In this document: piece after piece, positions 119-44,796 of the stretch
Position numbering within the stretch: the stretch's first letter is position 1
How the letters are laid out: each line of letters opens with the position of its first letter
DNA from: an uncultured Candidatus Saccharibacteria bacterium
Lineage (GTDB): Bacteria; Patescibacteriota; UBA1384; DTJR01
Direction of reading: 5' to 3'
DNA length: 61,892 nt
NCBI GenBank assembly: GCA_964580065.1
Contig: CAZOJE010000004.1
Span: 1 to 61,892, forward strand
The notes under the pieces: generated by a model
What the model was told of the DNA's origin: nothing
Seen by the model: the letters and a program-made list of their open reading frames with translations, nothing else
Databases searched by the model: none
Position numbers and translations under genes: made by a program

Positions 119-155
119 AAAAAAAAACGGGGACTTACCAAAAGGTCAGTCCCCG
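119..155 (-). terminator. Rho-independent terminator 3' of the 60-aa membrane-peptide gene
   Basis: On the - strand, the stem cggggact/agtccccg (128-135 with 148-155) is followed by a 9-U run (A119-A127 on +). It lies directly downstream of ORF 204..386. Confidence 0.7.
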
Positions 156-203
156 ATCAGAACACCAGATTAACCCTTTCGGGTGGCTCCGGCAGGTTCC
201 TAG

Positions 204-386
204 CTACAAGAAACTTAGGACTAACCCGATGATCAGGAGGGCGCCCCCTGTAATCATGAAGGTATTTCTGAATCCCTCGGATTCCTCGGGAACCATCCTG
301 GCCTGCCTCCGAGCTAGCTCAATTGCCCCTCCACCGCCAAGACCCACCAGCCCCAGGACCACCAGAAAAACGCCCATGATGTGCAT
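204..386 (-). CDS. Small two-TM membrane peptide (60 aa), no family recognised
   Basis: There are two hydrophobic segments (VFLVVLGLVGLGG and ITGGALLIIGLVLSF). AGGAGG lies about 6 nt upstream of the ATG, which is 12 nt after the stop of the upstream gene. The gene is GC-rich like its neighbour. Confidence 0.55.
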   Translation of the reverse strand: MHIMGVFLVVLGLVGLGGGGAIELARRQARMVPEESEGFRNTFMITGGALLIIGLVLSFL

Positions 387-398
387 AGCTACCTCCTT

Positions 399-1127
399 TC
401 ATGCGTGCGACATACGCTCGAGGAGTTGCTGCTGGGCAAACTTGAAGTCGCCCGGGGTATCAACGTCGAAGGCGAGATTGGGGTTGCGAGACGACACAAG
501 CGCCGCTTTGCAACCCAGCAGCTCGCCTATTCGCCGCTCAATATCCCCCAGTTTCAGCCCTCTGGCCAGTGCCTTAAGTGCGTTAGTCCACCCGAGAGCG
601 ATAACATCGGCCAACAGCTTGTGCCGATTCATGCACTCAACGACGTCCATGTTGGCCCGGATTGTTCCGGGCATGTACATCAGATGGCTTTGAGCCAGCT
701 GATTCTTGGTACCCGGCATATACCGAGTAACCGCCCCGCTCTGGCGTTCCTGCCAAATCGCACTACGTTCGATGACAGGCCAGATGAAATCTGCCGGACT
801 GTCTGCAACTTCTCCGAGGAGCCCCCGGATGTCATCAGCCGTAATCAGAACCGCATCGGCATTGACAATCAGCAGCGGTTCTCCTTCGGCTTTGCGCTGG
901 GCCAGGGACAGCAAGTCAGACAGATACTTGCCACAGCTTGCGATCTGCTCAACCCCTGGCATTGCCGGCGCTCCATCTGGGACAACCATCATGATAGGCG
1001 ACGCCGTCAGGCACGAGAGTTCATTGACCATTCGTCGCCAGATTGGGACGCCAACCAACTCAACCAGCGCCTTCGGGCCCATCCTCAAACGACTGCCGCG
1101 ACCACCAGCAAGTATTCCGATTTTCAT
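399..1127 (-). CDS. MobA-like / GT-A nucleotidyltransferase (NTP-transferase) domain protein, substrate unknown
   Basis: The supplied ORF is 399..1178. The internal ATG at 1127 gives the N-terminus MKIGILAGGRGSRL, the glycine-rich NTP-binding loop of this fold. The C-terminal DVDTPGDF resembles the DxDTPxD end of MobA/CofC-type enzymes. Composition is GC-rich. Confidence 0.7.
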   Translation of the reverse strand: MKIGILAGGRGSRLRMGPKALVELVGVPIWRRMVNELSCLTASPIMMVVPDGAPAMPGVEQIASCGKYLSDLLSLAQRKAEGEPLLIVNADAVLITADDIRGLLGEVADSPADFIWPVIERSAIWQERQSGAVTRYMPGTKNQLAQSHLMYMPGTIRANMDVVECMNRHKLLADVIALGWTNALKALARGLKLGDIERRIGELLGCKAALVSSRNPNLAFDVDTPGDFKFAQQQLLERMSHA

Positions 1128-1317
1128 ACACAGTCGCCTCCTTGAGGGAAAACTAACATTTTCCAAGTAGAAAATCAATCTCGCGGCTAATTCAAACTAT
1201 TTTATAAAAATTTTCTTTTACTACCCTCACTGAAGCTACGAAGGGTAGATAAAATGATTGATTCGAGCCGATATTTTTAAAAACAAATTCCTTAGCAGTT
1301 TTTCTATTTCAGTAAAC

Positions 1318-1820
1318 TTTCGCGGGACACCGCACGCCATTATATTCTGCGAGGCAAACCTCGCATAGCCCTTTTGGGCGACGTGGGGTAGTCGTAGATC
1401 ATGAGCACACTCCGTCTGTAAAGCAAATAGGAAAATAAAGTGGTCGAATGGCCAAAGACCATGAGCACTCTGTTTGTAAGGCAAATAGGAAAATTAAATG
1501 AGCCGAATGACCGAAGACCATGAGCGCCCCATTTGCGGAGCAAATAGGAAGTCGAATGGTACACCCGGCAGGAATCGGTCACAAGTCGGCGCGATAGTTT
1601 TTCAAGGAGTGCGCCGCAGTTTCGAGTTCCACCCTCGAAACCCCCGCCTCCCTCATCGCCTAATCGGCGATTCAGTCCGGCCTTCGATTCCACCGAGTCC
1701 CAAAGTCTAGAAATAATCTGGCTTGCCATGAGCGAACAAAGTGAGTCGAATGGCCGAAGACCTGCCCACTTCGCTAAAGCTACGCGGGACACCCCGCATA
1801 GCCCTTCGGGCGACGTGGGG
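1318..1820. repeat. Degenerate repeat field 3' of tRNA-Arg, including an exact 21-bp copy of the tRNA 3' end
   Basis: tggtacacccggcaggaatcg occurs at 1557-1577 and at 1821-1841 (inside the tRNA). Contiguous units of about 59 bp beginning catgagc start near 1401, 1461 and 1520, with a partial unit at 1728. The motif cgcgggacacc..gcatagccctt..gggcgacgtgggg occurs at 1321-1390 and 1783-1820. Confidence 0.7.
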
Positions 1821-1895
1821 TGGTACACCCGGCAGGAATCGAACCTGCATCATGGGCTCCGCAAGCCCACATTCTATCCGTTGAACTACGGGTGC
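1821..1895 (-). tRNA. tRNA-Arg (anticodon GCG), CCA encoded
   Basis: The reverse complement folds as a cloverleaf. The acceptor is GCACCCG/CGGGTGT, the anticodon stem is TGGGC/GCCCA with loop TTGCGGA, and the T arm is GCAGG-TTCGATT-CCTGC. It ends in a 3' ACCA. Confidence 0.85.
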
Positions 1896-2542: not shown

Positions 2543-2547
2543 CGAGA

Positions 2548-8169: not shown

Positions 8170-8176
8170 TGTGAAT

Positions 8177-8332: not shown

Positions 8333-8361
8333 TTGACAAATTTACCGGCATTTGTTATAGT
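8333..8361 (+). promoter_or_regulatory. Near-consensus sigma70 promoter with no ORF downstream
   Basis: It reads TTGACA (8333-8338), a 17-nt spacer, then TATAGT (8356-8361). The supplied track shows no + strand ORF of 60 aa or more for about 580 nt downstream, and no ATG lies near the predicted start. Confidence 0.6.
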
Positions 8362-8367
8362 ACGACG

Positions 8368-9499
8368 TTACGCTGAAAGTTCAGCCAAACAAAACGGCAA
8401 ACCGCAAGCGCAACAATCGTACCTTACAAGTTATACACTCCTTCGGCCGGTGATCTTGAATAAAGATAGTCGGCCGTTGAGGAGGGGCAAAGATTTGTAA
8501 GAAGAATTTTGACAATAAGGGCCTGAAGAACGATACCGGTTCTATCAGGTTTCGGGGAAACTAATAAAAGTTTCCTTTGACTTACAAAAAGAGAGGTTAC
8601 GCCGAACGTTAAAAAACGATCTCGCGTAACCAGCCCGGACGGTTTCTATATATAATATACGAAATCGTCTACAAGGGCCTGTAAGCTCTTCTAAGGGGTC
8701 GTATTGCTCCCCTGCCGTAAAAAGCAAATGTAATACAAAGTTGCTGTCTGATTACCCTAGCGGTGATTCGGCAGCAGTCCAAGTCTCTCTTTGAGTGGTT
8801 TATTTAAGGAGGGACGTCCATAAAGGCGGCTGGTTAAGTTAAAAGCAAAACCAGCCGCTCTATGGGCGAAAAGCCCTAGAGTTTGCTCATTGGCGCTCCA
8901 TTAGGGGCCGTCAATGAGTAACGCTTGTCCGGAAGCTAAAGCCCGGCATGCGTCCTCCATTAAGGAGGATGCATGACCGGGCCCGGAATAGCTGGGTGGG
9001 GTGGCCCTTCCGCGGACCCCATTCAGTGAAAAAGGTGAAATCGGCCGGCAAAAGCCGAGCCGATAACCGCCAACGTGCGCTCAAAAGAGCGCACCGCGGA
9101 AGGGCCGGGTCAGTTCAGCGGGAGCTGACTCGGTGTTACACATTCACCCCACTTGCCGCCGTTATTAATGGCGCCAAGTGGGGCATCCCGCTCCCAGGGA
9201 GACTCTGCTTCGGCAGAGTCTCCCTAAGACTTTACAATTAGACGAGATGAGTTGAGCCGGATTGAACAATCCGACTTTATCGTGTCGGGTGCTAATTGCA
9301 TTTCGGCAATATAAGGAATCTGCTTCGGCAGGTTCTGATTGTTTGGATTTATTTGTTTCTGATTCCGACTGTCAAAAAAACAGTAGAAACTTTCGAAGAT
9401 GGAATTTATTTCCAATCGGGAAAGGTGAAACAGAAACAGTGCGGCACGAGAGCTGGTTTATTTGAAATTCGAATAAACTGGCTTCGTGCCGTTTGTGTT
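8368..9499 (+). ncRNA. Candidate large (about 1.1 kb) structured non-coding RNA of unassigned class
   Basis: The region is bounded by the promoter at 8333-8361 and the terminator at 9442-9499. It has no credible ORF despite a GC-rich core. It is packed with long, near-perfect hairpins, often with UUCG, GAAA or AAAA loops:
- ggcggctggtt..aaccagccgc (8825-8859)
- ctctatgggc-gaaa-gccctagag
- gcccggcatgcgtcctcc-atta-ggaggatgcatg.ccgggc (8941-8981)
- gggagactctgc-ttcg-gcagagtctccc (9197-9224)
A 13-bp long-range helix, ggcccttccgcgg (9003-9015) with ccgcggaagggcc (9094-9106), encloses two AAAA-loop hairpins. Confidence 0.45.
9442..9499 (+). terminator. Intrinsic terminator closing the candidate ncRNA
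   Basis: A long hairpin, cggcacga..tggtttattt..aaataaactgg..tcgtgccg (9442-9491), is followed by tttgtgtt. Confidence 0.55.
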
Positions 9500-9990
9500 A
9501 AAAAGCCCAAAGCGAGTTTGGTAAGAGCGACTAAAATTTAGCGGACATTCGAATTTGTGGCCTATGCGGTGATCGATCCGGCCGTCCTTGGCGAGGATAC
9601 GCGCGAGCAAATTGCGCGCTGTCTCTCGTCGGGGATGACCGAACCACTAATCTAGGGGCCTCGGCAAGTGGGTTTGGCACAGAAAGATCCAGCCCACCTC
9701 CAATATAACCCTGCACGACGGGTAGATCGTGCGGTCCAAGCTTGCGGACCTAAGTGGGGACCAACATATAAGCCAACCTTGATGGCAAGGAGTGAAATTG
9801 TTGGCGAGACCGCAAAAAGCAAAGTTCCAGGTCGCCTTCAGGTGACCTTAATCAGGGCCGGTATAAACCCCGGCCCTCCACTCTAAGTACAGCAGAAGAA
9901 GTTCGCGAATTGTTTCGTGATTTTCTCTGTCGTACTAGATCGTAGCTTAAAAGCGCGGTCAATCGTTATGCCAAAAAGGAGGGATACCAA

Positions 9991-10473
9991 ATGGCAGATA
10001 CGCCCTTCCTCGGGCGGCTGGCGGGGGGAGAGGCGGTCTACGACCGCTTCAACTCCCACCTCCACCCGGGGGTGGTCGAAATCCTGCCCGAGGCGCTGGC
10101 GCAAGTCAATGCTAACGGCAGGCAGTTTCTGGTCGAGGAGGCGGTTTTTGACCACCCGATCGGCCAGACGATCTGCGTCGCCACTGGGGCCGGCGATCAG
10201 GTTGTTTACGCCCAGCGCCCCAAGCGTGCTGGCCTCTCCAGGTTCGTGAGCAATCGCGAACCGGAGGAGAGCTCCAGCGTTACCGTGATCCTCAAGGCGG
10301 GGGGTCGCGGTGAGTATGTTCTGATCACCGCCTTCGTCGGGGCGCCGGCGCCGCCGGAGCCCTGGGACAGGAACGCCACCGAGCAATCGGTGCCGTTTTG
10401 GTCAACTCACGCCCTCTGTTGGGGCGCCGAGGAGACCATCCCAGGCACCGAGACGCCGGAGTGCCCCTGGTAG
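9991..10473 (+). CDS. Hypothetical protein (160 aa), GC-rich, no family recognised
   Basis: A strong SD (aaaaaggaggg) lies about 7 nt upstream of the ATG. The gene has the same orientation and composition as the downstream AAA+/VWA genes. The antisense ORF 9883..10386 looks like a GC-rich artefact. Confidence 0.6.
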   Translation: MADTPFLGRLAGGEAVYDRFNSHLHPGVVEILPEALAQVNANGRQFLVEEAVFDHPIGQTICVATGAGDQVVYAQRPKRAGLSRFVSNREPEESSSVTVILKAGGRGEYVLITAFVGAPAPPEPWDRNATEQSVPFWSTHALCWGAEETIPGTETPECPW

Positions 10474-10649
10474 TTTGTCTTTCAAGCTGACCTGCAAATT
10501 CACCGAGAGAGGCGGGTCAGCGCTTCTCTCCATGGCTGCCGTAAAGGTGATCCGCGGCCGACAAAAACGCGGGCCTCGCAAGGCGTTATCCGCCCCTTAA
10601 AGAAGGCGGGTGATGGCGCTAAAGAGGGAAAAAGAAGGGAGGCCCTAAA

Positions 10650-11726
10650 ATGGGTCTCTACGAGAAGATTCTGGCGGCTTTGTCCGCCAAGTTCGTACGG
10701 TGCGAGGAGATCGCCCGTATTCTCGCGCTGGCTGTTGCCTCAGGCAGGAACGTCCTGCTTTGGGGCCCCGGCGGGCATGGCAAGTCGGAGATGGTCGCGG
10801 CGGCTCTCGAGGTCGTCGCGGCCGAGACCGAAGTCTTCGTCCAGTCCTTCGGTGAGGGCATGGACGAGGCCACCCTCTGGGGTGGCCTGGACTTTGCTGC
10901 TCTGGAGGGCGAGAAGGAGCTCCGGTATCATCCGGAAAACTCCTTCCTCGCCAAGCGCTTCGCCGTTTTCGAAGAGGTGTTTGATGCGCCAGCGGTCGTA
11001 CTGCTTGCGCTGAAGGACACGCTCACTGCGCGCCGCTTGCGAAAAGGCGCACAGAGCTTCCCGATGACCACTCGGGTCGTCATCGGGATCACGAACCGTG
11101 ACCCGGAGGAAGTCGCTGATCTGGGACCGGCTGCTGCCGCCCTGATTGAGCGGTTTCCCCTCCAGCTCCATGTTCGCTGGCCGTCGTATAAGGCCAGCGA
11201 TTACAATTCCATGTTCGCTAAGGTCGCGCCGTCACTCCCCGGCGCTGACCTTAATGGCTCGTGCGGAGTGCTCGCCGAGCTGATCGCCAAAGCCGGCGAG
11301 GGAGATAGCCCCATCTCCCCCCGGAGCGCCGTGTACGCGCTCGGGGTAGTCAAGGCCGCGGCCGCGTTGCGCGGAGACGGCCAGGTTCACAAGGAGGACC
11401 TGGTTGACCTGCGCTTCATCGACGGCCTCGAGGGATTGGCGGATAATATCCGCCAGGAACTCGATCAGGCTTTCGAACGAGCGGCCGCCGAGGGGCGGCT
11501 CAAGGAGGCGGAGCGCAGGCTTCAGAGCCTCCTCGGCGAGTACGGGCAGGCAGACAGCCCAATCAAATGTCTGCAGGCGGCCAGGCGTTTTCTCGCCTTC
11601 CAAGACGAGGTCGCTAACCTGGCCGTGACCGACGGCCTGACCGACCGCCGGAAATCGCTGCGGGAGACCGCGGCGACTAAGGCGGCCGAGGCGCAAGCCA
11701 AGGCCATGGAAACGACCCGCATCTAG
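10650..11726 (+). CDS. MoxR-like (AAA_5-type) AAA+ ATPase with C-terminal coiled-coil extension
   Basis: Walker A is VLLWGPGGHGKSEM and the Walker B-like segment is RFAVFEEVFDA, followed by ALKDTL..R...VVIGITN. The SD gaagggagg lies upstream of the ATG. Confidence 0.75.
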   Translation: MGLYEKILAALSAKFVRCEEIARILALAVASGRNVLLWGPGGHGKSEMVAAALEVVAAETEVFVQSFGEGMDEATLWGGLDFAALEGEKELRYHPENSFLAKRFAVFEEVFDAPAVVLLALKDTLTARRLRKGAQSFPMTTRVVIGITNRDPEEVADLGPAAAALIERFPLQLHVRWPSYKASDYNSMFAKVAPSLPGADLNGSCGVLAELIAKAGEGDSPISPRSAVYALGVVKAAAALRGDGQVHKEDLVDLRFIDGLEGLADNIRQELDQAFERAAAEGRLKEAERRLQSLLGEYGQADSPIKCLQAARRFLAFQDEVANLAVTDGLTDRRKSLRETAATKAAEAQAKAMETTRI

Positions 11727-11747
11727 CGGGAGAAAGGAGGCGGAAGC

Positions 11748-13157
11748 GTGTCTTACACCTTCCGCACATCACCTCCCGCCACCTACCTCCCGCCGACGGC
11801 GGAGGAGATGCGGGTAGCGGCCGATCGTGTCGAGCTGAAAGGTTTCTCGCGCGACTTGGTCGCCGATCTGTGCAACCTGGCCGCGGGCGGGGTTGTTAAC
11901 CCCCCGTCGGCCTATCGCGCCGAAGTGACGCGGCGAGCAGAGGAGCAACTGCCAGCTCCTAACTCGAGCAACCAATGGCAGATTTCGAAGCGCGATAGCA
12001 AGGGCAAAAAGCAGACCGCCTATACTACGTCCCGCCTTGAGGCGGTCACCGCCAACGCCGAGGAAACCATGAGGTACCACCAAAATGTCTGCGATTTTCT
12101 GCAGGCGGTGGACCTTTCGGCCTTCCCCGGCACCTCGCCCCTTGAGCAGGCGATGAGTTTGCTCAAACTCCTGTCCAAGAAGCAAGGAGGACAGGGCGGC
12201 GGTGAGGGTGGCGAACCGCTTCCGATCTTCCAGGAGAGCGAGCGGCCGGAAGGTGTGGCCGAGTCGCTCGAGGACACCATGGATATGGTGGACTCACTCT
12301 CGGAGGAAGAGCAAGATATGCTCGACCCCGAGGGTCAGAACCACGAAATTGAGTCGGAGGAGAGCGATGGTCAACGTACCGGCCATAAGTCGCTCGACCG
12401 GCTCAAGGTCGCCGAAGACCTGGTCGAGGGATGTGATAAGCGGGTGATGCTCGACATCTCCCGTACCCTCGATCAGTTCACCAAGCTGCAGGTCCGTCGC
12501 CAGCGCAAGCTGGAAGCGGACCCGGCTGGTGATGAAGTCCGATCGCGGCCGATGCGCCACCTTGGGGAATTGTCCCGGGTGGCCCCGTCAAGCTGGGCAC
12601 TGCGCCAGGAGGCGCCTTCGTACTTCTTGTACAAGGCTGTCTCCGGACAGCTGCCCGTCCGCGAGCGCGTCACGAGGATTGAGCGCCGACAGGCGATCTT
12701 CATCCTCGTTGACGGCTCCGGCAGTATGCGCGGCCGGAAGCACTGGAAAGCGAGCGGGGTTGTTATGAACCGCTTGAAGGCAGTGCTCTCCGGCGATGCC
12801 GAGGTCTGGGTGAGTGTTTTTGACACCCAGCTCGGCAAGACCCAACATGCCGGAACTCCGGAGGAGGCCCGCGAGCTGATCAAGAAGTTCGCTGCGCGTA
12901 ACTTCTCCGGCGGTGGCACGGACATTGCCGCATCCATCCGCGCCGCCCACAAGTACATCGAGGACGCGATCAAGAGCGGGGCAGCATTGTATCGCCCCGA
13001 GATCGTCGTCCTCACTGATGAGGACTCCTCCGTGGCAAACCTCCGCAAGGAGGAGCTCCCGGGCACGCGAGTGCACGGGATCGCCATGGGGGTCACCAAC
13101 CCCAAACTGGTGGAGTTCGCTAAGTCCACCGGCGGGGTTGGCATCGACAAATTCTAG
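11748..13157 (+). CDS. VWA-domain protein with MIDAS motif and an acidic central linker (partner of the AAA+ ATPase)
   Basis: A GTG start follows aaaggagg by 8 nt and lies 21 nt after the AAA+ stop. The C-terminal VWA domain reads AIFILVDGSGSMRG...FSGGGTDIA...IVVLTDED (DxSxS...T...D MIDAS). The acidic stretch is DSLSEEEQDMLDPEGQNHEIESEESD, as seen in CobT/BchD/NorD-type partners. Confidence 0.8.
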   Translation: MSYTFRTSPPATYLPPTAEEMRVAADRVELKGFSRDLVADLCNLAAGGVVNPPSAYRAEVTRRAEEQLPAPNSSNQWQISKRDSKGKKQTAYTTSRLEAVTANAEETMRYHQNVCDFLQAVDLSAFPGTSPLEQAMSLLKLLSKKQGGQGGGEGGEPLPIFQESERPEGVAESLEDTMDMVDSLSEEEQDMLDPEGQNHEIESEESDGQRTGHKSLDRLKVAEDLVEGCDKRVMLDISRTLDQFTKLQVRRQRKLEADPAGDEVRSRPMRHLGELSRVAPSSWALRQEAPSYFLYKAVSGQLPVRERVTRIERRQAIFILVDGSGSMRGRKHWKASGVVMNRLKAVLSGDAEVWVSVFDTQLGKTQHAGTPEEARELIKKFAARNFSGGGTDIAASIRAAHKYIEDAIKSGAALYRPEIVVLTDEDSSVANLRKEELPGTRVHGIAMGVTNPKLVEFAKSTGGVGIDKF

Positions 13158-13836
13158 TCCGTAAGGGCGAAAGGAGGTGGCCGCGTGATACGCGGACCGC
13201 CCAGTTCGGGTCCAAGGGGTAGGACCGAGTCAAAATAATTACCCCCGATGGCTAGGCATCGATCACCTGAGCAACCCCTGATACCTCCCTAGAACGGTCC
13301 AAAGGCAGGGGCGTAACCCACCACGCACGGGGGCACACCGGTCTGGAATTATCCCGAGGTCTCACAGCGTGAGATCGTTGAAGGAGAAATTCTCGGTCAG
13401 CCGGTGACCTGTTAAACATGAAACAGGTAATACAAAATTCATGTCCGTAACAGATATTTAAGTGTTTTCATCTGCTACGAGTAGCCTCGAGAATAAAGAG
13501 GCAAAAACATTCGGGTCAGTCTAAGCCGGTAACGGCTGGCCTGTACTGCTACCGGTTCCAGGTGACGCCTTTCGGGGCGTCACCGCGCAATATTCCAGGC
13601 CGCGACTTAGGTCGTGGCATCATATCAGGGTGGTGAAAGCAATTTCATCACCCTAACCTCTTCGTGAAACTATAAGTTTCTTTTAGAAATTTAAGCTCCC
13701 CGAAGAATTCGCGGGATATCCTTAACCCTTGGGAGGATTAAAGATAAGAGTTGTAATGCTGTGGGCGGGGGATGATGCAGGAGGAAGTCGATTTCCTCTT
13801 GCAGATCTCCCAAGGCCTGAAAAGAGGTGCTGGGAG

Positions 13837-14067
13837 ATGTTTAGCCCACTCGGTCCGCTCCGCCTTTCGCCCGAGGCGGAGCAAGAACGCCGGAAGGAGG
13901 TCCTGATCAAGTTCGCCCGGCAGGTTTGCCGGGCGGAGGGGAGGGATCCCAATTCCCTCCCCAAAGCAGAACTCCTCCGCCTGTTAAAGCAGGTGGAGGA
14001 TAAGTTCGCCGACGTAGAACTCGGCGAACTTATAGCGTTTGCGGACATGCTCCGCAAACGCCGCTGA
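13837..14067 (+). CDS. Small hypothetical protein (76 aa from the preferred start), GC-rich
   Basis: The supplied ORF is 13729..14067 with a TTG start. Third-position GC rises sharply only after the ATG at 13837, which is preceded by agaggtg. A strong terminator follows immediately. The start is uncertain (alternatives at 13756 and 13729). Confidence 0.45.
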   Translation: MFSPLGPLRLSPEAEQERRKEVLIKFARQVCRAEGRDPNSLPKAELLRLLKQVEDKFADVELGELIAFADMLRKRR

Positions 14068-14072
14068 TCCCG

Positions 14073-14122
14073 GGGCGTGCTGGTTGAGGATTCGTCCGAA
14101 ACCAGCACGCCCTTTTGTTTTT
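14073..14122 (+). terminator. Strong intrinsic terminator ending the GC-rich cassette
   Basis: A 13-bp perfect stem, gggcgtgctggtt (14073-14085) with aaccagcacgccc (14100-14112), is followed by ttttgttttt. Confidence 0.8.
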
Positions 14123-14192
14123 GCCAATAAGCCCGTCGTATCCAACCTTTAAAATCGGCCAAATTACGCTAAAAAAATCAAATGCAAAAATT

Positions 14193-14212
14193 TGCTATAA
14201 TATAATCAAATG
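14193..14212 (+). promoter_or_regulatory. Extended -10 promoter giving a leaderless or near-leaderless mRNA
   Basis: TGcTATAAT spans 14193-14201. The ATG at 14210 is 8 nt after the -10 element, with no SD. Confidence 0.45.
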
Positions 14213-14755
14213 AAAAAAAAGCCAGAAACAAAAGACGCAAAAACCAACTCAAAGGACAAAAACGATACCAAAAAAGCGGTAAATATTTTTGATGAAAACG
14301 CAATTTTACGTTGGAAAGCCCCCGATTACTATACTTTTGAAAAAAGTCCCCTCTGGTCTTTGGCGATTGGTTTGCTGGCAATTATTTTGTCGTTAGTTTT
14401 AATTTATACTTCAAACTATTTTCCGGTGATTATTATAATTTTAGCCGTTATTGTGACCTTTCAAGTGGCGCACGAGAAACCAAAAACGCAAGAATTTGCC
14501 ATCGACAAAGGCGGTGTTTTGTCGCGTGAAACTTATTTTCCTTTTTTAGAATTGAAATCGTTTTGGATCGCCCGCCACGACCGAAAAACTGTTCTTTACC
14601 TCGAACCGGTTAATCGAATAAAAAGCTCTATTGTCATTCCCCTAGGTAAACAAAACTCAACCGAGGTGAGAAATTTCCTTTTGCAATACCTGCCCGAAAA
14701 GCTTGAGGGCGGCGAACTTATTAGCGACAAATTGATTAGAATTTTTAAATTATAA
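14210..14755 (+). CDS. Membrane protein with two TM helices and a C-terminal soluble domain (possibly bacterial PH-like)
   Basis: The 181-aa ORF is AT-rich like the host. It has a lysine-rich N-terminus and then two hydrophobic helices (LWSLAIGLLAIILSLVLIY and FPVIIIILAVIVTF). Confidence 0.7.
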   Translation: MKKKPETKDAKTNSKDKNDTKKAVNIFDENAILRWKAPDYYTFEKSPLWSLAIGLLAIILSLVLIYTSNYFPVIIIILAVIVTFQVAHEKPKTQEFAIDKGGVLSRETYFPFLELKSFWIARHDRKTVLYLEPVNRIKSSIVIPLGKQNSTEVRNFLLQYLPEKLEGGELISDKLIRIFKL

Positions 14756-14854
14756 GATCATAAAAATTGCCCTAATTGAAAAAACATTAAACGGCAATTA
14801 AGTTTGTCGTTTTTTAAATAGAAATAAAAAAACACTAAATATTCAACCCACTAA

Positions 14855-14904
14855 AACCGACGAAGGGCGGTGGACGGATCGCTTTCGCGACCCGTCCACC
14901 GCCC
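14855..14904 (-). terminator. Terminator hairpin 3' of the 345-aa GC-rich gene
   Basis: A 13-bp perfect stem, gggcggtggacgg (14865-14877) with ccgtccaccgccc (14892-14904), is followed on the - strand by a weak U tract (cgguuuuag). Confidence 0.55.
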
Positions 14905-14912
14905 CGAACTCA

Positions 14913-15950
14913 CTACAGTTGGGCTTTCTCCATCAGAGCCCGTACCACGGTGCGATTCTGGAAGAGAAGAAGCCCCCTTTCAGCGGAGCCATTGGGATAT
15001 TTCCCCTCGTCCTGCAGAACGGTGAAAAGCCCCGATTGGTCCATCCTCGTCTCCAGCCCAGAGAACGAGAAGGGGGGCTCAACTCTTAATCTCAAAGACT
15101 CCATAGTCCCTTCGGAAAACAATCTTCCGAAGCCGACCACCCTATTTTCCCCTTGAGGAGTGAAGACACAAAAGGCAAATTCCTTTGGCAGAGAGGGGGA
15201 GAGATGCTTGTTCTTAGTTTTGGCCCAGATAGAGCCAATCTCCTCTCGGCACCATTCCTCCTCTTGGGCGATAACAACAAGTTTGTCCGTGAAGTCCTTT
15301 GGGACAAGCACAAAACGGAAGAAGTCGTCAACGAACTCTTGAGCAAGGATCTCACAGAGCTCGTTTTCAACTCGCCATTCGATCGGCTCAATCGTAAACA
15401 ACCCCCGTGGGTCATTCACGGTTTTGGGTATCAGCAACGATCTTAGCGCGTAAGCCACCTTCGTCTTAATGGCGTAAGCACCAAGCTCCGCCATTGGTTG
15501 AGGAACCGGCAAGCACCCCCCGCGTAACAGGGCGCCGATAAATGCGTCCAAAACATCTCGCGCCCATTGGGCACCCCCAAACGCTAAGGATATAAAATCC
15601 GACCAGACGCCCGCCGGAGCCATCGCCAGTGTCTTTTTGGCGATTTCGAAACGCGTCACGGAGTCAACGAGGTCCATCGCCTCGCTGACCCACTTCACAA
15701 CTCCTGGATTGTGATAACCCAGAAAAGATTCCGGCCAGAGACCGCCATACTTGCCTTCCAGCAGCTCTCTGGCAACATAAGCCCAGATACGCTTCTGACA
15801 CATCAGAGACTGGGCGAGGCAGAAGAAAAGATCTTCTCTCTCCCTTTCTCCCCGCTCTTTGTCTGCCGTGACAATTGCCCACATTCGAGCAAACTGCTCT
15901 GGGTGATTGCCGATAACATGAAAAAGCTCCTCCCGATCTCTTTCTTTCAT
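14913..15950 (-). CDS. Hypothetical protein (345 aa), GC-rich orphan
   Basis: This is a long ORF with aaggagg 6 nt upstream of the ATG and its own terminator. No motif was recognised. AT-rich sequence flanks it on both sides. Confidence 0.65.
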   Translation of the reverse strand: MKERDREELFHVIGNHPEQFARMWAIVTADKERGEREREDLFFCLAQSLMCQKRIWAYVARELLEGKYGGLWPESFLGYHNPGVVKWVSEAMDLVDSVTRFEIAKKTLAMAPAGVWSDFISLAFGGAQWARDVLDAFIGALLRGGCLPVPQPMAELGAYAIKTKVAYALRSLLIPKTVNDPRGLFTIEPIEWRVENELCEILAQEFVDDFFRFVLVPKDFTDKLVVIAQEEEWCREEIGSIWAKTKNKHLSPSLPKEFAFCVFTPQGENRVVGFGRLFSEGTMESLRLRVEPPFSFSGLETRMDQSGLFTVLQDEGKYPNGSAERGLLLFQNRTVVRALMEKAQL

Positions 15951-15987
15951 TCCGCTTCCTCCTTATCAGCTGCAAATCAAGGTGCAT

Positions 15988-16006
15988 GTGATCTACAAAA
16001 GATCAC
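15988..16006. promoter_or_regulatory. Perfect 7-bp inverted repeat (operator candidate) upstream of the 345-aa gene
   Basis: gtgatct-N5-agatcac lies 38-56 nt upstream of the start codon at 15950. Confidence 0.35.
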
Positions 16007-16142
16007 GAAAAAATAGCATTTTCAATGCCATAAATCAATGGCGGCTCTTTAAATTATCGGTTAATTCTGCTTTAAATATAGATAGCGTTTCACAAAAATG
16101 GAGGCAAGCGACCTAACCATTTTGTTAATTTTGGAGGTTATT

Positions 16143-17069
16143 ATGGCTAAAGTGCTTGTAACTGGTGGGGCCGGTTTTATTGGCTCAAATTTAGTTGATG
16201 CGTTAATTGAAAAAAATCATGAGGTTGCCGTGGTTGATAATCTTTCAACCGGCCGCCAAGAAAATCTTAATCCTCAAGCACATTTTTACAAAATAGACAT
16301 CACCGACCAAGAGCCATTGAGCGAGGTTTTTGCCAAAGAAAAACCCGAGATTATTTTTCATCTTGGCGCTCAAGCCAGTGTCAACACTAGCGTCGAAAAT
16401 CCTGCTCTCGATATCAGCGTCAACGTGATCGGCACGGTTAACTTATTAGAGCTGTGCCGCCAACACAACATTAAAAAAATTATTTTTTCCTCAACCGGCG
16501 GCGCCATTTACGGCGACCAAGCGCCACGACCCACAAACGAAACCGCCGAGCAGCTGCCCGCTACTCCCTACGGTATGGACAAGCTTGCCGCCGAAAAATA
16601 CATCAATTTTTATCAAAACAACTATGATCTAAAACCGGTTATTTTACGCTACGCCAACGTTTATGGTCCGCGGCAAAACCCGCACGGCGAAGCCGGTGTT
16701 ATCGCCATCTTTACTGACCGAATGCTGAAAAATACACCTTACAACCTCTATGGCGACGGCGAGCAAACCCGCGATTTTGTTTTTGTCGGCGATGTCGTTC
16801 GGGCAAATTTAGCCGCCTTGGAATATAATAAAACAGGCATATTTAATATTGGCTCCGGTCGCGAAACGTCCGTCAATCAGGTTATCGAGTTGCTGCAAAA
16901 ATACTCCGGCAGTAGCTTACCGCCAACAAAAATGCCCGCCAAACTTGAACAAAGAAATAGCTGTCTTGACAGCTCGCTGGCCCAAGAAAAACTTAATTGG
17001 CAACCATCAGCCGATATCGAAGAAGGCCTGAAAAAAACAATCGAATTTTACAAAAATTCCCTTAAATAA
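16143..17069 (+). CDS. NAD-dependent epimerase/dehydratase, UDP-glucose 4-epimerase-like
   Basis: The ATG at 16143 is preferred, with GGAGGT 6 nt upstream. The N-terminus is MAKVLVTGGAGFIGSNL (Rossmann GxxGxxG). The extended-SDR YxxxK is present (PYGMDKLAAEKY). Confidence 0.85.
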   Translation: MAKVLVTGGAGFIGSNLVDALIEKNHEVAVVDNLSTGRQENLNPQAHFYKIDITDQEPLSEVFAKEKPEIIFHLGAQASVNTSVENPALDISVNVIGTVNLLELCRQHNIKKIIFSSTGGAIYGDQAPRPTNETAEQLPATPYGMDKLAAEKYINFYQNNYDLKPVILRYANVYGPRQNPHGEAGVIAIFTDRMLKNTPYNLYGDGEQTRDFVFVGDVVRANLAALEYNKTGIFNIGSGRETSVNQVIELLQKYSGSSLPPTKMPAKLEQRNSCLDSSLAQEKLNWQPSADIEEGLKKTIEFYKNSLK

Positions 17070-17074
17070 ATATT

Positions 17075-17764
17075 ATGAAATTAGCCATTGTTATTCCCGT
17101 TTTTAATGAGGGGGTCGTAATCCGCGAACTAATTGAAAGTTTGCCTAAAAAAATCGATGGGATTGATAAAATTGTCGTCATTGCCGTCAATGACGGTTCA
17201 ACTGATAATTCTTCAGACGAAATCCGCAAAACCAAGGCCCTGCTAGTCGAGCACCCCATCAATATGGGCGCCGGTGCCGCCACCGTAACTGGTTTGGAGG
17301 CGGCCAGTAAGATCGGCGCCGATTTAGCCATCACCCTAGACGGCGACGGTCAGCACGACCCCAAAGACATTCAAAAACTGGTCAAGCCGATTTTACAAAA
17401 CAGAGCCGATTTAGTTATCGGCGTGCGCTCTCAAAAATCCAGCCAAATGCCCGCAATCAAAAAAATTGGCAACGCCGGCTTAAATCTGATAACCTATGCT
17501 TTATCCCGCACTTGGACAACCGATTCCCAATCCGGCTTTAAATGTTTTTCGCGCGAAGCAATTGACAAGCTTGAAGTCGAAGGTTTCGGCTATGAATTTT
17601 GCTCCGAAATCATTATGGAAGCAAAACGCAAAAATATTCGCATCGCCGAAGTGCCGATTAGTGTAATTTATTCTGAATATTCCAAGAAAAAAGGCCAAAG
17701 TATTTTTAACGGCACCAACATCGTATTAAAATTATTATTTAAAAAACTAACAAAATCATTATGA
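17075..17764 (+). CDS. GT2 glycosyltransferase, polyprenol-phosphate sugar synthase (DPM1-like)
   Basis: It contains IVIPVFNE....VNDGSTD...DGDGQHDP, the typical GT-A/GT2 DxD architecture. Confidence 0.85.
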   Translation: MKLAIVIPVFNEGVVIRELIESLPKKIDGIDKIVVIAVNDGSTDNSSDEIRKTKALLVEHPINMGAGAATVTGLEAASKIGADLAITLDGDGQHDPKDIQKLVKPILQNRADLVIGVRSQKSSQMPAIKKIGNAGLNLITYALSRTWTTDSQSGFKCFSREAIDKLEVEGFGYEFCSEIIMEAKRKNIRIAEVPISVIYSEYSKKKGQSIFNGTNIVLKLLFKKLTKSL

Positions 17765-18105
17765 CAATCATTGCCAAAATCCTCGCCGCTTTTTTTGCGA
17801 TCGTTGTAATTTCCCGCTCGGTCACCGATTATCGCAGCAAAAAAGAATCTCTAACTATGACTGCTTTTTGGATCATTGTTTGGCTGGCCATTGCCGCGAT
17901 CGCTTTTTTCCCAACTTTAGTCGACGAAGCCATTAGATTGTCCGACGACAGCCGCTCGGGACTTGGCACAGTTTTTGGCATGGGTCTTGTGTTTGTCCTT
18001 TTCATCAGCTATCGCATTTACGTCAAAGCCAATCGAGTGGAAAAAGCTTTGGCAAAACTTGCTAGGGATTTTTGTCTTTCAAAGATCAAAGATGAAAAGA
18101 AATAA
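17761..18105 (+). CDS. DUF2304-like small membrane protein
   Basis: The 114-aa protein has 3-4 TM segments. Its start overlaps the GT2 stop in an ATGA, the pairing commonly seen for DUF2304. Confidence 0.65.
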   Translation: MTIIAKILAAFFAIVVISRSVTDYRSKKESLTMTAFWIIVWLAIAAIAFFPTLVDEAIRLSDDSRSGLGTVFGMGLVFVLFISYRIYVKANRVEKALAKLARDFCLSKIKDEKK

Positions 18106-28796: not shown

Positions 28797-28836
28797 TAAA
28801 AGCAACGGGGGGCGGAAGATTACACCTTCCGCCCCC
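28797..28836 (-). terminator. Terminator hairpin of the GC-rich two-gene insert
   Basis: An 11-bp stem, gggggcggaag (28808-28818) with cttccgccccc (28826-28836), is followed on the - strand by uugcuuuuaug. Confidence 0.6.
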
Positions 28837-28841: not shown

Positions 28842-29828
28842 TCAGTCACACTTCATGTCGAGGATCCTTTCGGCGATCCTCTTGGCCGCGCCCGGGTTTA
28901 CCGGGTAGCGCGGCTGCCGCAGGTCGCCGGACTCTACCAGCACGCCTCCGATCATCCGAGCGAGCTGATCGGGCACATAAGCAGCGTCGGTCAGGCCACG
29001 CACGATCGGCGGCCAGTCCGCTGTGCCGGTGTTTTTCAGAAACCGGTCTCGAGCGGCAACCGTCAGGTAGTCGATCGCCGGCACACCGATGCAGGCGGCC
29101 TCGATCGACAAAGTTGAATACGAGCAGATCACCAGATCGGACGCCTTGAGCGTTTCAGACGCCCCAAGCGGACTGATCTCGCCAATCCCCTGGTACGCCG
29201 AAGGATCAGTGCGATCCCCCGGGTGGATAGACAGGACGACCTGGAAATCGCGGGCTTGGCGGCAAGCCGCCTTTCTGACTTGCTCGCTTGCCGCGGTAAA
29301 CAGCTCGACGTTGATCTCCGTCTTCTTGCCACCCACCACCATGGCCAGGAAGACGTCTTCGGCCACGCCAAGCCGCCCGCGATACTCTTCGCGCTCCCCG
29401 GGCTTGCAGGCAAACTGCTCCCACAGGGGAACACCGCCGGCAAAAAAGCTGCCCGTTGATCCGGTGACCGCCCTGATCTCGCCCTCATCAGGCACGATCA
29501 CGAGATCGACCTCGTTCCTCAATTCCTTGAACCAAGGTCTGCCGACCACACTGAATGTGTCGGCAAACAGAACGCGGGCGCAATAGCCGGGCGCTGCCCT
29601 CAACGCCTGCATCTCAAGAGCGGCCAGCTCGGGCGAAGAGGACATGCCCGTGACGAGGACATCCTGACGGCGTACCGACTCTAGCACCGCATAGATATTG
29701 GTGATGGTGTCGGGACGGCCGTAGCCCAAGCACCGTATCACTTCACACCCCTCCTCTTCGAGGGCCTTACTTACAAAGTCAAGGTTCTTGCACGGGCCAA
29801 CGTCCACAGCCAGCAGCATCACTTTCAT
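28842..29828 (-). CDS. GC-rich GT-B-like hypothetical protein (328 aa)
   Basis: The SD ggagaggtg lies upstream of the ATG. The C-terminal half (VVLSIHPGDRTD...DLVICSYSTLSIEAACIGVPAIDY) echoes the RxHP and STxxxEA..G.P motifs of the AT-rich paralogues at 23582 and 26259. Confidence 0.6.
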   Translation of the reverse strand: MKVMLLAVDVGPCKNLDFVSKALEEEGCEVIRCLGYGRPDTITNIYAVLESVRRQDVLVTGMSSSPELAALEMQALRAAPGYCARVLFADTFSVVGRPWFKELRNEVDLVIVPDEGEIRAVTGSTGSFFAGGVPLWEQFACKPGEREEYRGRLGVAEDVFLAMVVGGKKTEINVELFTAASEQVRKAACRQARDFQVVLSIHPGDRTDPSAYQGIGEISPLGASETLKASDLVICSYSTLSIEAACIGVPAIDYLTVAARDRFLKNTGTADWPPIVRGLTDAAYVPDQLARMIGGVLVESGDLRQPRYPVNPGAAKRIAERILDMKCD

Positions 29829-29913: not shown

Positions 29914-30483
29914 CTAGCTCGGTCGATACGAGCCGAAACAGACCCGGGCACAGGGGAGAATCATACGCCGGTGATTCTCGATTATACCCGGAACTTGCCC
30001 GCTGCAGGCCGCATCGAGATCGACCCATTTCAGATCGCCAATCTCGGGGACATTCTCGATGCGCGACAGCATTACTACCTGAACAACGCTGCCGCGTTCT
30101 TCCACAATCGGGTCCTGCAGGAACGCAAGAGTTGGCTCGACCAGGTTTGCGCCGAGGAGTTCTGTCTTGGCAAGGCGCTCGAGCGCAGACCAGTAGCTCT
30201 CGCCAGGTCTCAAGAACGTTCCCGGACAGTGCCACTGGCCAGGATAGGCCGTGTCGTTGTCGGCACGGCGCTTGAGCAAGACTTCGATCGGATACTCACC
30301 GCTGACGACAACCAGCTCAATACAGCAGCTGACTGTCTTCTTGGCCACTGCGTCAAACAGCTCTGTCCCCAGCGGCGTGTCAGGCAGTGAGTTGAGAAGA
30401 GCTGCCGCCACTTTCCGCCGCTCCTCTTCATCCATTTGCAACAGTTTCTCTACCAGCTCCATCAGACTGGCATCCATTCGCAC
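29914..30483 (-). CDS. Nudix-fold protein with a degenerate Nudix box and an N-terminal helix resembling an 'addiction module component' antitoxin motif
   Basis: PGTFLRPGESYWSALERLAKTELLG aligns to GX5EX7REUXEEXGU with RE->RL and EE->TE. The N-terminus LMELVEKLLQMDEEERRKVAAALLNSL resembles the L..ER..LA..LL.SL motif. The gene is GC-rich. Confidence 0.55.
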   Translation of the reverse strand: MRMDASLMELVEKLLQMDEEERRKVAAALLNSLPDTPLGTELFDAVAKKTVSCCIELVVVSGEYPIEVLLKRRADNDTAYPGQWHCPGTFLRPGESYWSALERLAKTELLGANLVEPTLAFLQDPIVEERGSVVQVVMLSRIENVPEIGDLKWVDLDAACSGQVPGIIENHRRMILPCARVCFGSYRPS

Positions 30484-41903: not shown

Positions 41904-41911
41904 GAATAAAT

Positions 41912-42460: not shown

Positions 42461-42472
42461 AAAGGGGTTTTT

Positions 42473-43495: not shown

Positions 43496-44351
43496 GCAAA
43501 AGATTTTAATTACCGGCGCCAAGGGAATGCTGGGGCAAATGCTGGCCGAGGTGCTTTCCGGCTATGAATTGGTTTTAACCGACAGGGAAGAAATGGATAT
43601 TACTGACGCTAAAAGTGTTAGAGATTTTATTATTAAAGCCAAGCCCGATTTTGTTATCCACGCCGCCGCCTACACGGCGGTTGACAAAGCCGAAGACGAG
43701 CCGGCGAATTGCCGTCTCATCAACGTAACCGGCACCGCCAATGTTGCCCAAGCGGCCGACAAAATCGGCGCGACAATGTTTTATATTTCGACCGATTATG
43801 TTTTTGACGGTCAAAAAAAATCTCCTTATACTGAAGCCGATCTTCCCCGCCCTCTTTCGGTTTACGGACAATCCAAATTAGACGGCGAGCAAGCCGCTCG
43901 GAAATTTTGTCAGCGTCATTACATTTTGCGCACCGCTTGGCTTTTTGGCGAAATTCCTCACCGCCAAAGCGCCAATTTTGTTGAAAAAATGCTCTCACTA
44001 GCCAAAGAGAAAAAAACGCTTCGCGTGGTGGCCGATCAAATTGGTTCGCCAACTTACACGCGAGATCTAGCTCAAGCAATCGCCTGTTTTATTAAACAAA
44101 AACCACCCGCCGCGTACGGAATTTATCATTTTTCCGGCAAAAATAAGGTTAGCTGGCATGATTTTGCCAAAGAAATTTTTCGTCAGACAAAAACGCAAGT
44201 TGAATTGCAGCCGATCAAAACGGCTGACTTCGCCGCTAAAGCCGCGCGACCCGCTCATAGTTACATGTCTAAAGAAAAGGTGGAAAAAGCTCTCAAAATC
44301 CAAGTCAGACGCTGGCAGGAGATGCTGGCCGACTATTTGCGCCGGCGCTAA
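43488..44351 (+). CDS. rmlD: dTDP-4-dehydrorhamnose reductase
   Basis: It contains ILITGAKGMLGQ...YISTDYVFDG...YGQSKL and overlaps the rmlB stop. Confidence 0.9.
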   Translation: MNKQKILITGAKGMLGQMLAEVLSGYELVLTDREEMDITDAKSVRDFIIKAKPDFVIHAAAYTAVDKAEDEPANCRLINVTGTANVAQAADKIGATMFYISTDYVFDGQKKSPYTEADLPRPLSVYGQSKLDGEQAARKFCQRHYILRTAWLFGEIPHRQSANFVEKMLSLAKEKKTLRVVADQIGSPTYTRDLAQAIACFIKQKPPAAYGIYHFSGKNKVSWHDFAKEIFRQTKTQVELQPIKTADFAAKAARPAHSYMSKEKVEKALKIQVRRWQEMLADYLRRR

Positions 44352-44396
44352 CGCCGGACAGGCGGGCGTCCATAAAAATACGGTTTACTAAGCGAG

Positions 44397-44425
44397 TTGA
44401 CTTATAATTCTAAATTTGGTCTAAT
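44397..44425 (+). promoter_or_regulatory. Candidate promoter for the small GC-rich gene
   Basis: It reads TTGACT (44397-44402), a 17-nt spacer, then TCTAAT (44420-44425). An overlapping TATAAT at 44403-44408 is an alternative -10 element. Confidence 0.35.
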
Positions 44426-44480
44426 GATCTGATCCCTTTAAGGGAAGCTCCTAAAAACAGTCCAAGGAAGGATAATCGCC

Positions 44481-44753
44481 ATGGCAAACAAGGCAAACAG
44501 GGGTGCCGTGACGTATCACGTCTTGAAGGTGACGTTCGCCGGCGTAACGTTGCCAGTCCGATCCGGTACGGTTGTCATCCGACCGGACAGCACTGTCGTC
44601 TTCAACCTGCACGGGCGGACGGGCGGAGGCTTTGCCAGAGTCACGAACTGGCGTCTTGTCGACGGGCAGATGCCAGCACCTAACGGCCAGCTGGAACTGC
44701 AAGGTGACGGGGGCGCCTTGTGCACCGTCCTGCTGGGTGCCAGGGTCAACTAG
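44481..44753 (+). CDS. Small (90 aa) GC-rich, beta-rich hypothetical protein
   Basis: The SD aaggaagg lies about 9 nt upstream of the ATG. A perfect hairpin follows the stop. AT-rich host genes flank it on both sides. Confidence 0.5.
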   Translation: MANKANRGAVTYHVLKVTFAGVTLPVRSGTVVIRPDSTVVFNLHGRTGGGFARVTNWRLVDGQMPAPNGQLELQGDGGALCTVLLGARVN

Positions 44754-44770
44754 CCCTCACAAGAGCTTTC

Positions 44771-44796
44771 ATGGCCCCGATTTCGATCGGGGCCAT
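44771..44796. terminator. 11-bp perfect hairpin with a UUCG loop between convergent genes
   Basis: The sequence is atggccccgat-ttcg-atcggggccat. There is no clear U tract. It lies 18 nt after the 90-aa ORF stop and 6 nt from the stop of the convergent 44802..46421 gene. Confidence 0.45.

Follow-up and report, generated by a model that had tools for sequence, protein, structure and literature searches.

GC-rich gene blocks in the AT-rich genome of a Saccharibacteria bacterium: accessory transcription units that may derive from a gene pool of the candidate phyla radiation

The contig CAZOJE010000004.1 of an uncultured Candidatus Saccharibacteria bacterium, which was analyzed over its whole length of 61.9 kb and is called the window in the following, contains five blocks of GC-rich genes that are embedded in an AT-rich genome and are numbered here as islands 1 to 5. 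We think, with a modest preference over other readings, that each of these five blocks is an accessory transcription unit which was acquired independently by horizontal transfer and was drawn from a gene pool of the candidate phyla radiation (CPR). The blocks represent neither one family nor one event. Island 2 encodes a trio consisting of the conserved protein p160, a MoxR-type ATPase and a VWA-domain protein, and the source of this trio is a gene pool shared among CPR bacteria; a pool of the same kind probably also supplied the other four blocks, which mostly encode orphans. The best-supported account is therewith ordinary in kind and describes dispensable accessory units at recombination-prone loci.

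The genome (G000) has a size of 972 kb in 22 contigs and a G+C content of 42.2%. The reference set consisted of 944 crudely called open reading frames (ORFs), in which the G+C content of third codon positions (GC3) has a median of 0.402 and a robust standard deviation of 0.051, and the GC3 values of the island genes lie 3.8 to 8.2 robust standard deviations above this median (Table 1). The five blocks as a whole possess a G+C content of 0.53-0.63, which is equaled by at most 3% of random genome segments of the same length, and their tetranucleotide distance from the genome reaches z values of 2.5-7.9, as compared with 0.3-2.6 for three AT-rich control blocks. A sequence-only reading of the window had recognized the five blocks by eye, and the GC3 and tetranucleotide computations agree that all of them are compositional outliers. 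Also the first and second codon positions are shifted upwards, to 0.58-0.70 (GC1) and 0.40-0.48 (GC2), and the island proteins therefore have a high-GC amino-acid make-up. Each block is a self-contained unit of Shine-Dalgarno site, ORF and hairpin, as had been proposed, and the G/C-rich hairpin of 8-13 bp that had been seen at four block ends in fact terminates every one of the five. The view that most products are orphans is borne out as well: o345 from island 3 matches only itself in a search of 5.8 billion clusters and belongs to no recognizable family, the possibly glycosyltransferase-like (GT-like) protein of island 4 has three relatives, and o90 from island 5 has one homolog at 36% identity besides weak matches to repeats of giant proteins. 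The sequence-only reading had named three findings as speaking against itself, namely an unremarkable composition, junctions without read support and conservation in synteny with the same composition throughout the lineage, and none of these was encountered.

The five blocks are real and not assembly chimeras. A chimeric assembly or a binning artefact, in which reads of a GC-rich organism were joined to this genome, might be suspected in a metagenome-assembled genome (MAG) of 22 contigs with an estimated contamination of 4.3%, in which moreover contig C10 duplicates part of contig C3, but we give this explanation practically no credence, as different pipelines arrived at identical junctions in independent assemblies of at least six other samples, and as the islands are internal to the contig, where their neighboring genes are in synteny with relatives. 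The junctions of islands 2-5 are reproduced in independent assemblies (ENA ERZ795049; JGI 3300009767 and 3300010344; Logan SRR9860463, SRR9674389, SRR30200690 and SRR28640815), either at 98.7-99.3% identity or with exactly the same protein and the same neighboring genes. The ERZ795049 contig corresponds to window positions 13712-18258 and the 3300009767 contig to positions 13750-18234, both at about 99.25% identity, and the 3300010344 contig corresponds to positions 14050-16582 at 98.7%. Taken together, these three contigs run across the two junctions of island 3, and those from ERZ795049 and 3300009767 include the right end of island 2 as well. The GC-rich tail of island 2 is found from 13712 on in assemblies L037 and L038 and from 14050 on in L039. 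The Logan contig from SRR9860463 contains TrmB, a non-coding stretch, p160, MoxR and VWA in the order of the window, and the hairpin-dense region upstream of the MoxR cassette (8333-9990) is likewise reproduced in the independent assembly L048. One JGI contig spans neuB, island 4 and neuC. For island 5, a protein identical to o90 is found in 14 contigs, and the six contigs listed stem from six samples and have the same neighbors, rmlD and a 539-aa gene.

In comparison with syntenic relatives, the blocks turn out to be presence/absence polymorphisms, which the sequence-only reading had considered as one possible outcome. Islands 1-3 are situated on either side of a tRNA-Arg/tRNA-Ser pair, in a variable hot spot that extends from this pair to the core gene o181, and islands 4 and 5 are situated in a surface-sugar gene cluster. 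The interval between tRNA-Ser(GCT) and o181 has a length of 11.7 kb in the window, about 8 kb in genome G006, about 5 kb in G005 and 1.1 kb in G002, and in the same-genus genome G001 the tRNA pair directly precedes o181. The gene o181, which is 60-75% identical across the family, and an epimerase gene also bound a slot of variable content. This slot is near-empty in G005 (83 nt) and G007 (227 nt), and it harbors o345 in the window, a 677-aa secreted protein in G003, and GC-rich orphans of 488 aa in G006 and 437 aa in G002, the latter two being 26% identical to each other. A homology of o345 to these two slot genes was considered and rejected (blastp E 0.1, hhalign probability 0.1%), and a 14-nt repeat that surrounds island 3 is no more than expected by chance. 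Further GC-rich genes occur in or near the interval between o181 and tRNA-Ser(GCT) in G006 (L068 11743-14678), where a protein with a PlsY-like N-terminus and a GpsA-like protein were read from the N-terminal sequence only, and in G002 (L069 11865-13424), there just past tRNA-Ser(GCT).

Judged by its sequence, island 4 combines a Nudix protein with a putative glycosyltransferase-like protein inside a nonulosonic-acid gene cluster. In genome G004 of the same family, whose neuB and neuC are 78% and 81% identical to those of the window, neuB is followed by neuC without inserted genes, and what separates them is a short spacer rich in A+T plus the conserved neuC promoter; in G019 the gap between them measures 39 nt and is without insert, too. 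The uninterrupted order in these relatives therefore places island 4 exactly between the neuB stop codon and the neuC promoter. In the sister strain L034, the flanks of the island are 97.2% and 98.3% identical to the window; identity drops to 88.3%, with 76 gapped positions, over the first 1.5 kb of the island and reaches 99.6% over its last 245 nt. The Nudix homolog of this strain contains an in-frame TAG. This mosaic is the pattern of allele replacement by recombination together with decay, and the allele differences between the two strains (73 from A/T to G/C and 72 from G/C to A/T) are unpolarized without an outgroup. In the distant lineage L035, whose neuB is 80% identical, both island 4 genes are again found 3' of neuB, in the order GT-like then Nudix where the window has Nudix then GT-like, and with a different downstream neighbor; these copies are 50% and 61% identical to those of the window and are still GC-rich. 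The GT-like protein has no Pfam match, and its C-terminus shows a weak motif match to a neighboring 451-aa protein (E 1e-4). The earlier label of a GT-B-like gene stays unproven because its AlphaFold2 (AF2) model is too poor for a fold search (predicted local distance difference test, pLDDT, 45.8). In island 5, neither o90 nor the 539-aa neighbor has a counterpart in relatives.

Only for island 2 can the relatives be traced. MoxR is missing from all 40 relatives that were searched, and the trio recurs jointly in 24 loci at 47-77% identity, mostly in differing CPR classes. The hosts comprise Levyibacteriota, Kaiserbacteria, Saccharibacteria, Parcubacteria, Uhrbacteria, Magasanikbacteria, Doudnabacteria and Paceibacterota. 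A few loci are found in MAGs with a non-CPR label, and matches outside the CPR are smaller in number and for the most part more remote; the closest relatives of the trio, at up to 77% identity, belong to other Patescibacteria of many classes. The VWA protein is 46-72% identical across 22 full-length loci. The cassette is usually GC-richer than its surroundings, with a mean difference between cassette GC3 and flank GC3 of 0.20 and a difference above 0.1 in 19 of 23 loci, the extremes being 0.69 in flanks of 0.23 and 0.65 in flanks of 0.26. The tree of MoxR and VWA, which was calculated for island 2 only, conflicts with taxonomy and shows Parcubacteria as sister to Saccharibacteria. In this tree, a Levyibacteriota copy (cassette GC3 0.69, flanks 0.23) is the sister of a Kaiserbacteria copy (flanks 0.57) with short branches, and as the Kaiserbacteria genome has a G+C content of 53%, this pair fits a transfer from a higher-GC CPR lineage. 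In the sister pair L005/L006, one cassette copy has fallen to a GC3 of 0.36 in flanks of 0.17; it has thus decayed in a very AT-rich host, and the composition of the cassette is therefore not fixed.

In the window, MoxR and VWA are separated by 21 nt. For p160, the residues that are invariant in about 20 genomes include H23, H25, R76, R79 and E123-P-W-D126, and an AF2 model of high confidence (pLDDT 92.8) found no match in a fold search of the PDB, nor does p160 match Pfam, NCBIfam or PADLOC. A sequence search of the PDB with p160, MoxR and VWA returned only RavA for MoxR, and among ten island proteins PADLOC and NCBIfam detected no defense system and no specific family. Plasmid and phage collections contain no match to the trio or VWA, and IMG/VR contains one distant match. 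In the hairpin-dense DNA between 8170 and 10700, Rfam searches at gathering and E-value thresholds produced chance-level matches and no family, and in a blastn comparison of the non-coding flanks of island 2 with the 24 cassette loci the sole shared part is the leader at 10474-10649, which is found in 2 loci. The possible ORF o112 in the tail (13729-14067) contains five perfect hairpins of 9-13 bp.

Island 1 encodes, according to its sequence, a MobA-like nucleotidyltransferase (NTP-transferase) and a small membrane peptide with two transmembrane (TM) segments, TM60. The NTP-transferase has nine relatives with 95-32% identity on a few metagenome contigs; in 40 related genomes only four weak matches were obtained (32-42% identity), none of them in the same genus. 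The pair recurs at 63% identity in the unrelated metagenome contig L042, where a 63-aa peptide resembling TM60 comes after the NTP-transferase homolog and where the GC enrichment is mild. The sequence-only reading had found no direct repeats at the block borders, and this is correct for islands 2-5; island 1, however, is bracketed by an imperfect direct repeat of about 90 nt. The two copies are about 70% identical (alignment score 49, as compared with 16.1 +/- 2.5 and a maximum of 29 in 500 shuffles), and the 18-mer core of the repeat has 2 matches in the window with 0.29 expected. The repeat could be a duplicated target or an att-like sequence. The patches at 1340-1830 and 2542-2960, which are also GC-rich and are absent from the earlier list of blocks, are non-coding tRNA-linked repeats: a partial copy of the 3' end of tRNA-Arg(GCG) is located at 1548-1577, two identical units of 145 nt located 3' of tRNA-Ser(GCT) each close with the last 21 nt of that tRNA, and the same palindromic hairpin is found 3' of tRNA-Ser(CGA) at the end of the contig (61823-61892).

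Table 1. Features of the five GC-rich islands in the window, with GC3 and its robust z score for the genes.
Feature	Position	Strand	GC3	Robust z	Remarks
Left copy of ~90-nt imperfect direct repeat	37..127	.			Local alignment, shuffles
Island 1 terminator hairpin	128..155	-			8 bp + 3 bp, AAAA loop, T-run on - strand; read from sequence
60-aa two-TM peptide (TM60)	204..386	-	0.67	5.3	ORF
MobA-like NTP-transferase	399..1178	-	0.62	4.3	Pfam PF12804, E 5e-16; probable start ATG near 1127
Right copy of ~90-nt imperfect direct repeat	1197..1287	.			Local alignment, shuffles
Near-consensus promoter (8333-8361), then ORF-poor, hairpin-dense DNA upstream of MoxR cassette	8333..9990	+
p160, 160-aa conserved partner protein	9991..10473	+	0.82	8.2	Next to MoxR-VWA in ~20 loci, 31-63% identity
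Leader between p160 and MoxR	10474..10649	+			Similar in L002 (79% over 86 nt) and L015
MoxR-type AAA+ ATPase	10650..11726	+	0.77	7.3	Pfam PF20030 bpMoxR (E 1.7e-15), PF07728
469-aa protein, C-terminal VWA/MIDAS domain	11748..13157	+	0.77	7.1	Pfam PF05762, PF13519
GC-rich tail: hairpin-dense stretch, possible 112-aa ORF (o112), terminator	13158..14122	+
Island 2 terminator	14073..14112	+			13-bp stem, then T-run
Island 3 terminator hairpin	14865..14904	-			13-bp stem
o345, 345-aa orphan	14913..15950	-	0.60	3.8	ORF; AAGGAGG Shine-Dalgarno site; no family match
Island 4 terminator hairpin	28808..28836	-			11-bp stem, directly upstream of conserved neuC promoter
328-aa protein, possibly GT-like	28842..29828	-	0.74	6.6	Three relatives only
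189-aa Nudix-domain protein	29914..30483	-	0.67	5.2	Pfam PF00293, E 4e-7, over curated cut-off
o90, 90-aa orphan	44481..44753	+	0.75	6.7	ORF
Island 5 hairpin	44771..44796	.			11-bp stem, no T-run, between convergent genes

In the whole genome, 89 GC-rich segments of at least 300 nt amount to 63.7 kb in total, some of them being RNA genes or tRNA-linked non-coding repeats, and about 5% of the genes belong to a class of GC-rich, Shine-Dalgarno-bearing, terminator-capped and poorly conserved genes. This class was characterized by comparing 50 GC-rich genes with the other genes of the genome. A strong Shine-Dalgarno hexamer is found before a possible start in 56% of the GC-rich and 14% of the other genes (p 4.5e-11), with an internal background of 6% and 1%, respectively. 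The 16S rRNA tail contains CCUCC, yet native AT-rich genes are mostly without a strong Shine-Dalgarno site. A perfect GC-rich stem of at least 8 bp within 90 nt past the stop codon was counted for genes with a spacer of at least 50 nt, and it occurs in 38% of the GC-rich and 2% of the other genes (p 3e-13); for this, our own hairpin counts were used, as a generic terminator scan did not discriminate. The terminator stems of the GC-rich genes share no common sequence and are usually followed by a T-run. With regard to conservation, one of 13 GC-rich proteins from other contigs has a same-genus homolog, as compared with six of 12 random AT-normal proteins, and seven of the 13 have no homolog in 20 relatives, as compared with two of the 12. 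GC-rich segments are modestly enriched near tRNA genes (13 of 89, with 5.7 +/- 2.3 expected), which is in part a trivial consequence of the GC-richness of the tRNA genes. Contigs C3 (at about 102-123 kb) and C10 (at about 12-33 kb) carry identical genes, be it through redundancy of the assembly or through a true duplication, and some of the genome-wide counts are slightly inflated by this. A gene on another contig of the genome (C1:123330-123857, GC3 0.80) has a 76% identical homolog in G009, which belongs to a different family of the same order, and its only match within the own family is 29% identical (G005); it probably represents another transfer.

From these data, the following course of events can be proposed. 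The units share a design in which a Shine-Dalgarno site precedes one to three ORFs and a strong intrinsic terminator closes the unit. The trio circulates between phylum-level lineages and has a near-native composition in moderately GC-rich CPR such as Kaiserbacteria and Uhrbacteria. Entry would occur without an element-encoded recombinase, with DNA uptake and subsequent recombination in or next to conserved neighbors as the likeliest route, and for island 1 a repeat-mediated event is possible. The GC-richness would mainly reflect a past in higher-GC genomes with an incomplete decay to the composition of the present host. With strong ribosome-binding sites and terminators, the units would remain expressible and insulated within a genome in which both are lacking from most native genes.

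Several observations weigh against this account. No donor is identified for four of the five blocks, and the integration mechanism has to be inferred. A recent transfer predicts close homologs, and as none is present in very large databases, this weighs against recency. In the GC-richest hosts, the GC3 of the MoxR cassette lies at the host level or slightly above it. In lineage L035, the island 4 genes have a GC3 of 0.61-0.63 in flanks of 0.35-0.40, and this GC-richness beside a neuB of 80% identity argues for either a long-persisting composition or a repeated site-specific gain. Finally, most of the GC-rich genes contain a large excess of inverted repeats that is unaccounted for by simple donor composition. 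The sequence-only reading had proposed a recent horizontal acquisition from a high-GC donor; its horizontal part is supported by the presence/absence patterns and the foreign composition, and its recency is in doubt because island 4 is GC-rich beside the 80% identical neuB and because the hairpin excess in coding DNA hints at a maintained composition.

This hairpin excess became apparent in a fold test with synonymous-codon shuffles, which keep the protein, the codon usage and GC3. The resulting z scores are -8.9 for MoxR, -10.8 for VWA, -6.0 for o112, -4.5 for o345, -3.9 for p160, -3.4 for the GT-like gene and -3.0 for the NTP-transferase, and the mean of fourteen other GC-rich genes is -5.0, as compared with -0.9 for twelve AT-normal genes. 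Dinucleotide shuffles concur (mean z -2.15 and -0.36, respectively, per 150-nt segment), and the AT-rich accessory genes of the window behave like controls. VWA orthologs keep the excess in 11 of 12 other genomes (z -4.7 to -12.3), even with a GC3 of 0.35-0.45, whereas native GC-rich genes of GC-rich hosts have none (z about -0.5). It is conceivable that the GC-richness is actively maintained in a class of accessory genes and is not the fading mark of a donor, either by selection for a folded, nuclease-resistant transcript or single-stranded DNA, or by hairpin-templated mutation. In that case, the initiation of translation on the folded RNA would depend on strong Shine-Dalgarno sites, and the genes, besides being travelers, might be long-standing residents of variable loci that evolve fast. 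Besides the fold statistics, the GC-richness of island 4 at the same site in the distant lineage L035 speaks for such a maintenance. However, the positions of the hairpins are not conserved: for 16 MoxR orthologs, RNAalifold detected almost no shared structure (-40.9 kcal/mol over 1092 columns, covariation -1.8), and since the hairpins are not common to the orthologs, this is a general enrichment of copy-specific inverted repeats and not a conserved RNA structure. The excess is also equal on both strands, so that selection at the RNA level is not demonstrated, and it is missing in some GC-rich island genes, namely the 488-aa gene of G006 (-0.5), the 437-aa gene of G002 (+1.7), the GT-like gene of L035 (-1.5) and o90 (-0.7). 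Moreover, the cassette copies of L006 and L022 lose G+C in very AT-rich hosts, and the patchy distribution and the incongruent tree would still require transfer, so that we regard maintenance as a serious but minor contender next to acquisition from the CPR pool.

Two further origins had been suggested in the sequence-only reading, and neither fits the data well. A recent transfer of the blocks from the high-GC host organism that carries this episymbiont is suggested by all three codon positions, which resemble those of a genome with about 60% GC, and gene transfer between epibionts and their hosts is known in other systems. Yet, the only traceable block, the trio, has its closest relatives in other Patescibacteria, and the other four are nearly free of homologs among 5.8-15 billion proteins. 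The searched databases include assemblies of the very samples of this organism, in which a close homolog would be expected after a recent transfer from an abundant host, and none was seen; in addition, more than 20 genomes of differing habitats contain the cassette of the trio in GC-rich form. We consider a host donor very improbable on these grounds. Hardly more plausible is a single cassette family that is moved in trans by a dedicated recombination system reading the hairpins in the manner of integron attC sites. It would explain why a hairpin ends each unit, why the gene order of island 4 differs between the window and L035, why one slot carries differing cargo among relatives, and why repeats flank island 1. 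The hairpins themselves, however, all differ from one another, and with perfect stems and mostly T-runs they have the appearance of ordinary terminators. Direct repeats at the flanks are no general feature either, since they occur at 2% of 81 GC-rich segments and likewise at 2% of random sites, and the cassettes are scattered rather than arrayed. The earlier statement that no integrase stands at the block borders holds, in that a six-frame hidden Markov model search of the window gave no tyrosine or serine recombinase (PF00589, PF00239; other transposase families were not scanned). Besides two serine recombinases, the genome contains one tyrosine recombinase gene on C3, whose second appearance on C10 is due to the overlap in content of these two contigs; all of them lie on contigs other than the window.

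The blocks resemble several known systems in part. With integron gene cassettes they have in common that they are compact, mostly single-gene units with an end hairpin, that the cargo of a site varies and that many products are orphans, but here no IntI-type integrase is adjacent and the cassettes do not form an array. The island hairpins also differ from attC sites, being perfect stems that are unrelated in sequence and mostly followed by a T-run, and do not form a family of imperfect palindromes. Phage morons are self-contained add-on transcription units in prophages. They, too, are autonomous and dispensable units between resident genes, often with deviant composition and their own terminator, and two of the islands contain a promoter-like site; in contrast to morons, the islands have no prophage context and, apart from the one distant IMG/VR match, no match in phage collections. 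The trio is similar to MoxR-vWA systems such as RavA-ViaA and the ternary systems with a beta-propeller protein (PF20030), in which a MoxR AAA+ ATPase is followed by a VWA/MIDAS protein and accompanied by a third partner. It differs in that p160 is not of the described third-component type (beta-propeller, peptidase), that hairpin-dense non-coding DNA flanks the trio, and that PADLOC gave no match. Also comparable are the genomic islands and individually transferred genes of Patescibacteria, for which gene transfer, mostly among Patescibacteria, has been documented (mSystems 2025, PMC12455944). These are likewise short, compositionally deviant accessory segments of ultra-small genomes, and the typical divergence of about 24% between donor and recipient is comparable to the 23-26% of the closest MoxR copies here. 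As far as could be ascertained, that study describes neither a shared architecture of Shine-Dalgarno site, ORF and strong terminator nor a hairpin excess in coding DNA, nor a single cassette that stays GC-rich across more than 20 AT-rich hosts.

Two other regions of the window contain conspicuous repeats. Clusters of CTGTGGAAAAC-type repeats at 56629-56742 and 58143-58377 flank a 476-aa gene (56793-58223) and adjoin the minimum of the cumulative GC skew at about 56.5 kb, and this region may be the replication origin with DnaA boxes. At 50213-50899, two direct repeats of 300 nt, which are 96% identical and 387 nt apart, lie within a 494-aa ORF (50203-51687), which indicates an internal duplicated domain.

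There is also a more far-reaching idea, which we hold to be unlikely and somewhat less probable than maintenance taken by itself. The pangenome of CPR bacteria would then possess a distinct compartment of GC-rich, Shine-Dalgarno-bearing, terminator-ended genes whose coding sequences are filled from end to end with copy-specific inverted repeats, and the composition and hairpin density of these genes would be actively maintained. This could happen by selection for nuclease-resistant transcripts or incoming single strands, or by template switching, which would act on GC-rich DNA in genomes poor in exonucleases and make the hairpins perfect, and the compartment would move between phylum-level CPR lineages without recombinases of its own. 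If this is true, GC-richness would be the functional signature of a mobile gene class and not the fingerprint of a donor.

Horizontal gain is one of the few ways in which ultra-small, host-dependent CPR bacteria can alter their surface and conflict repertoire, and the window shows that genes gained in this manner can be told apart clearly from native genes by composition, ribosome-binding site, terminator and conservation in relatives. That the CPR gene pool rather than the hosts appears as their source corrects a tempting inference for episymbionts. The hairpin excess, if it is maintained, would bear on the expression of foreign genes in genomes that are mostly devoid of Shine-Dalgarno sites, on the stability of mRNA in CPR bacteria, and on the reliability with which transfers can be dated from G+C content.

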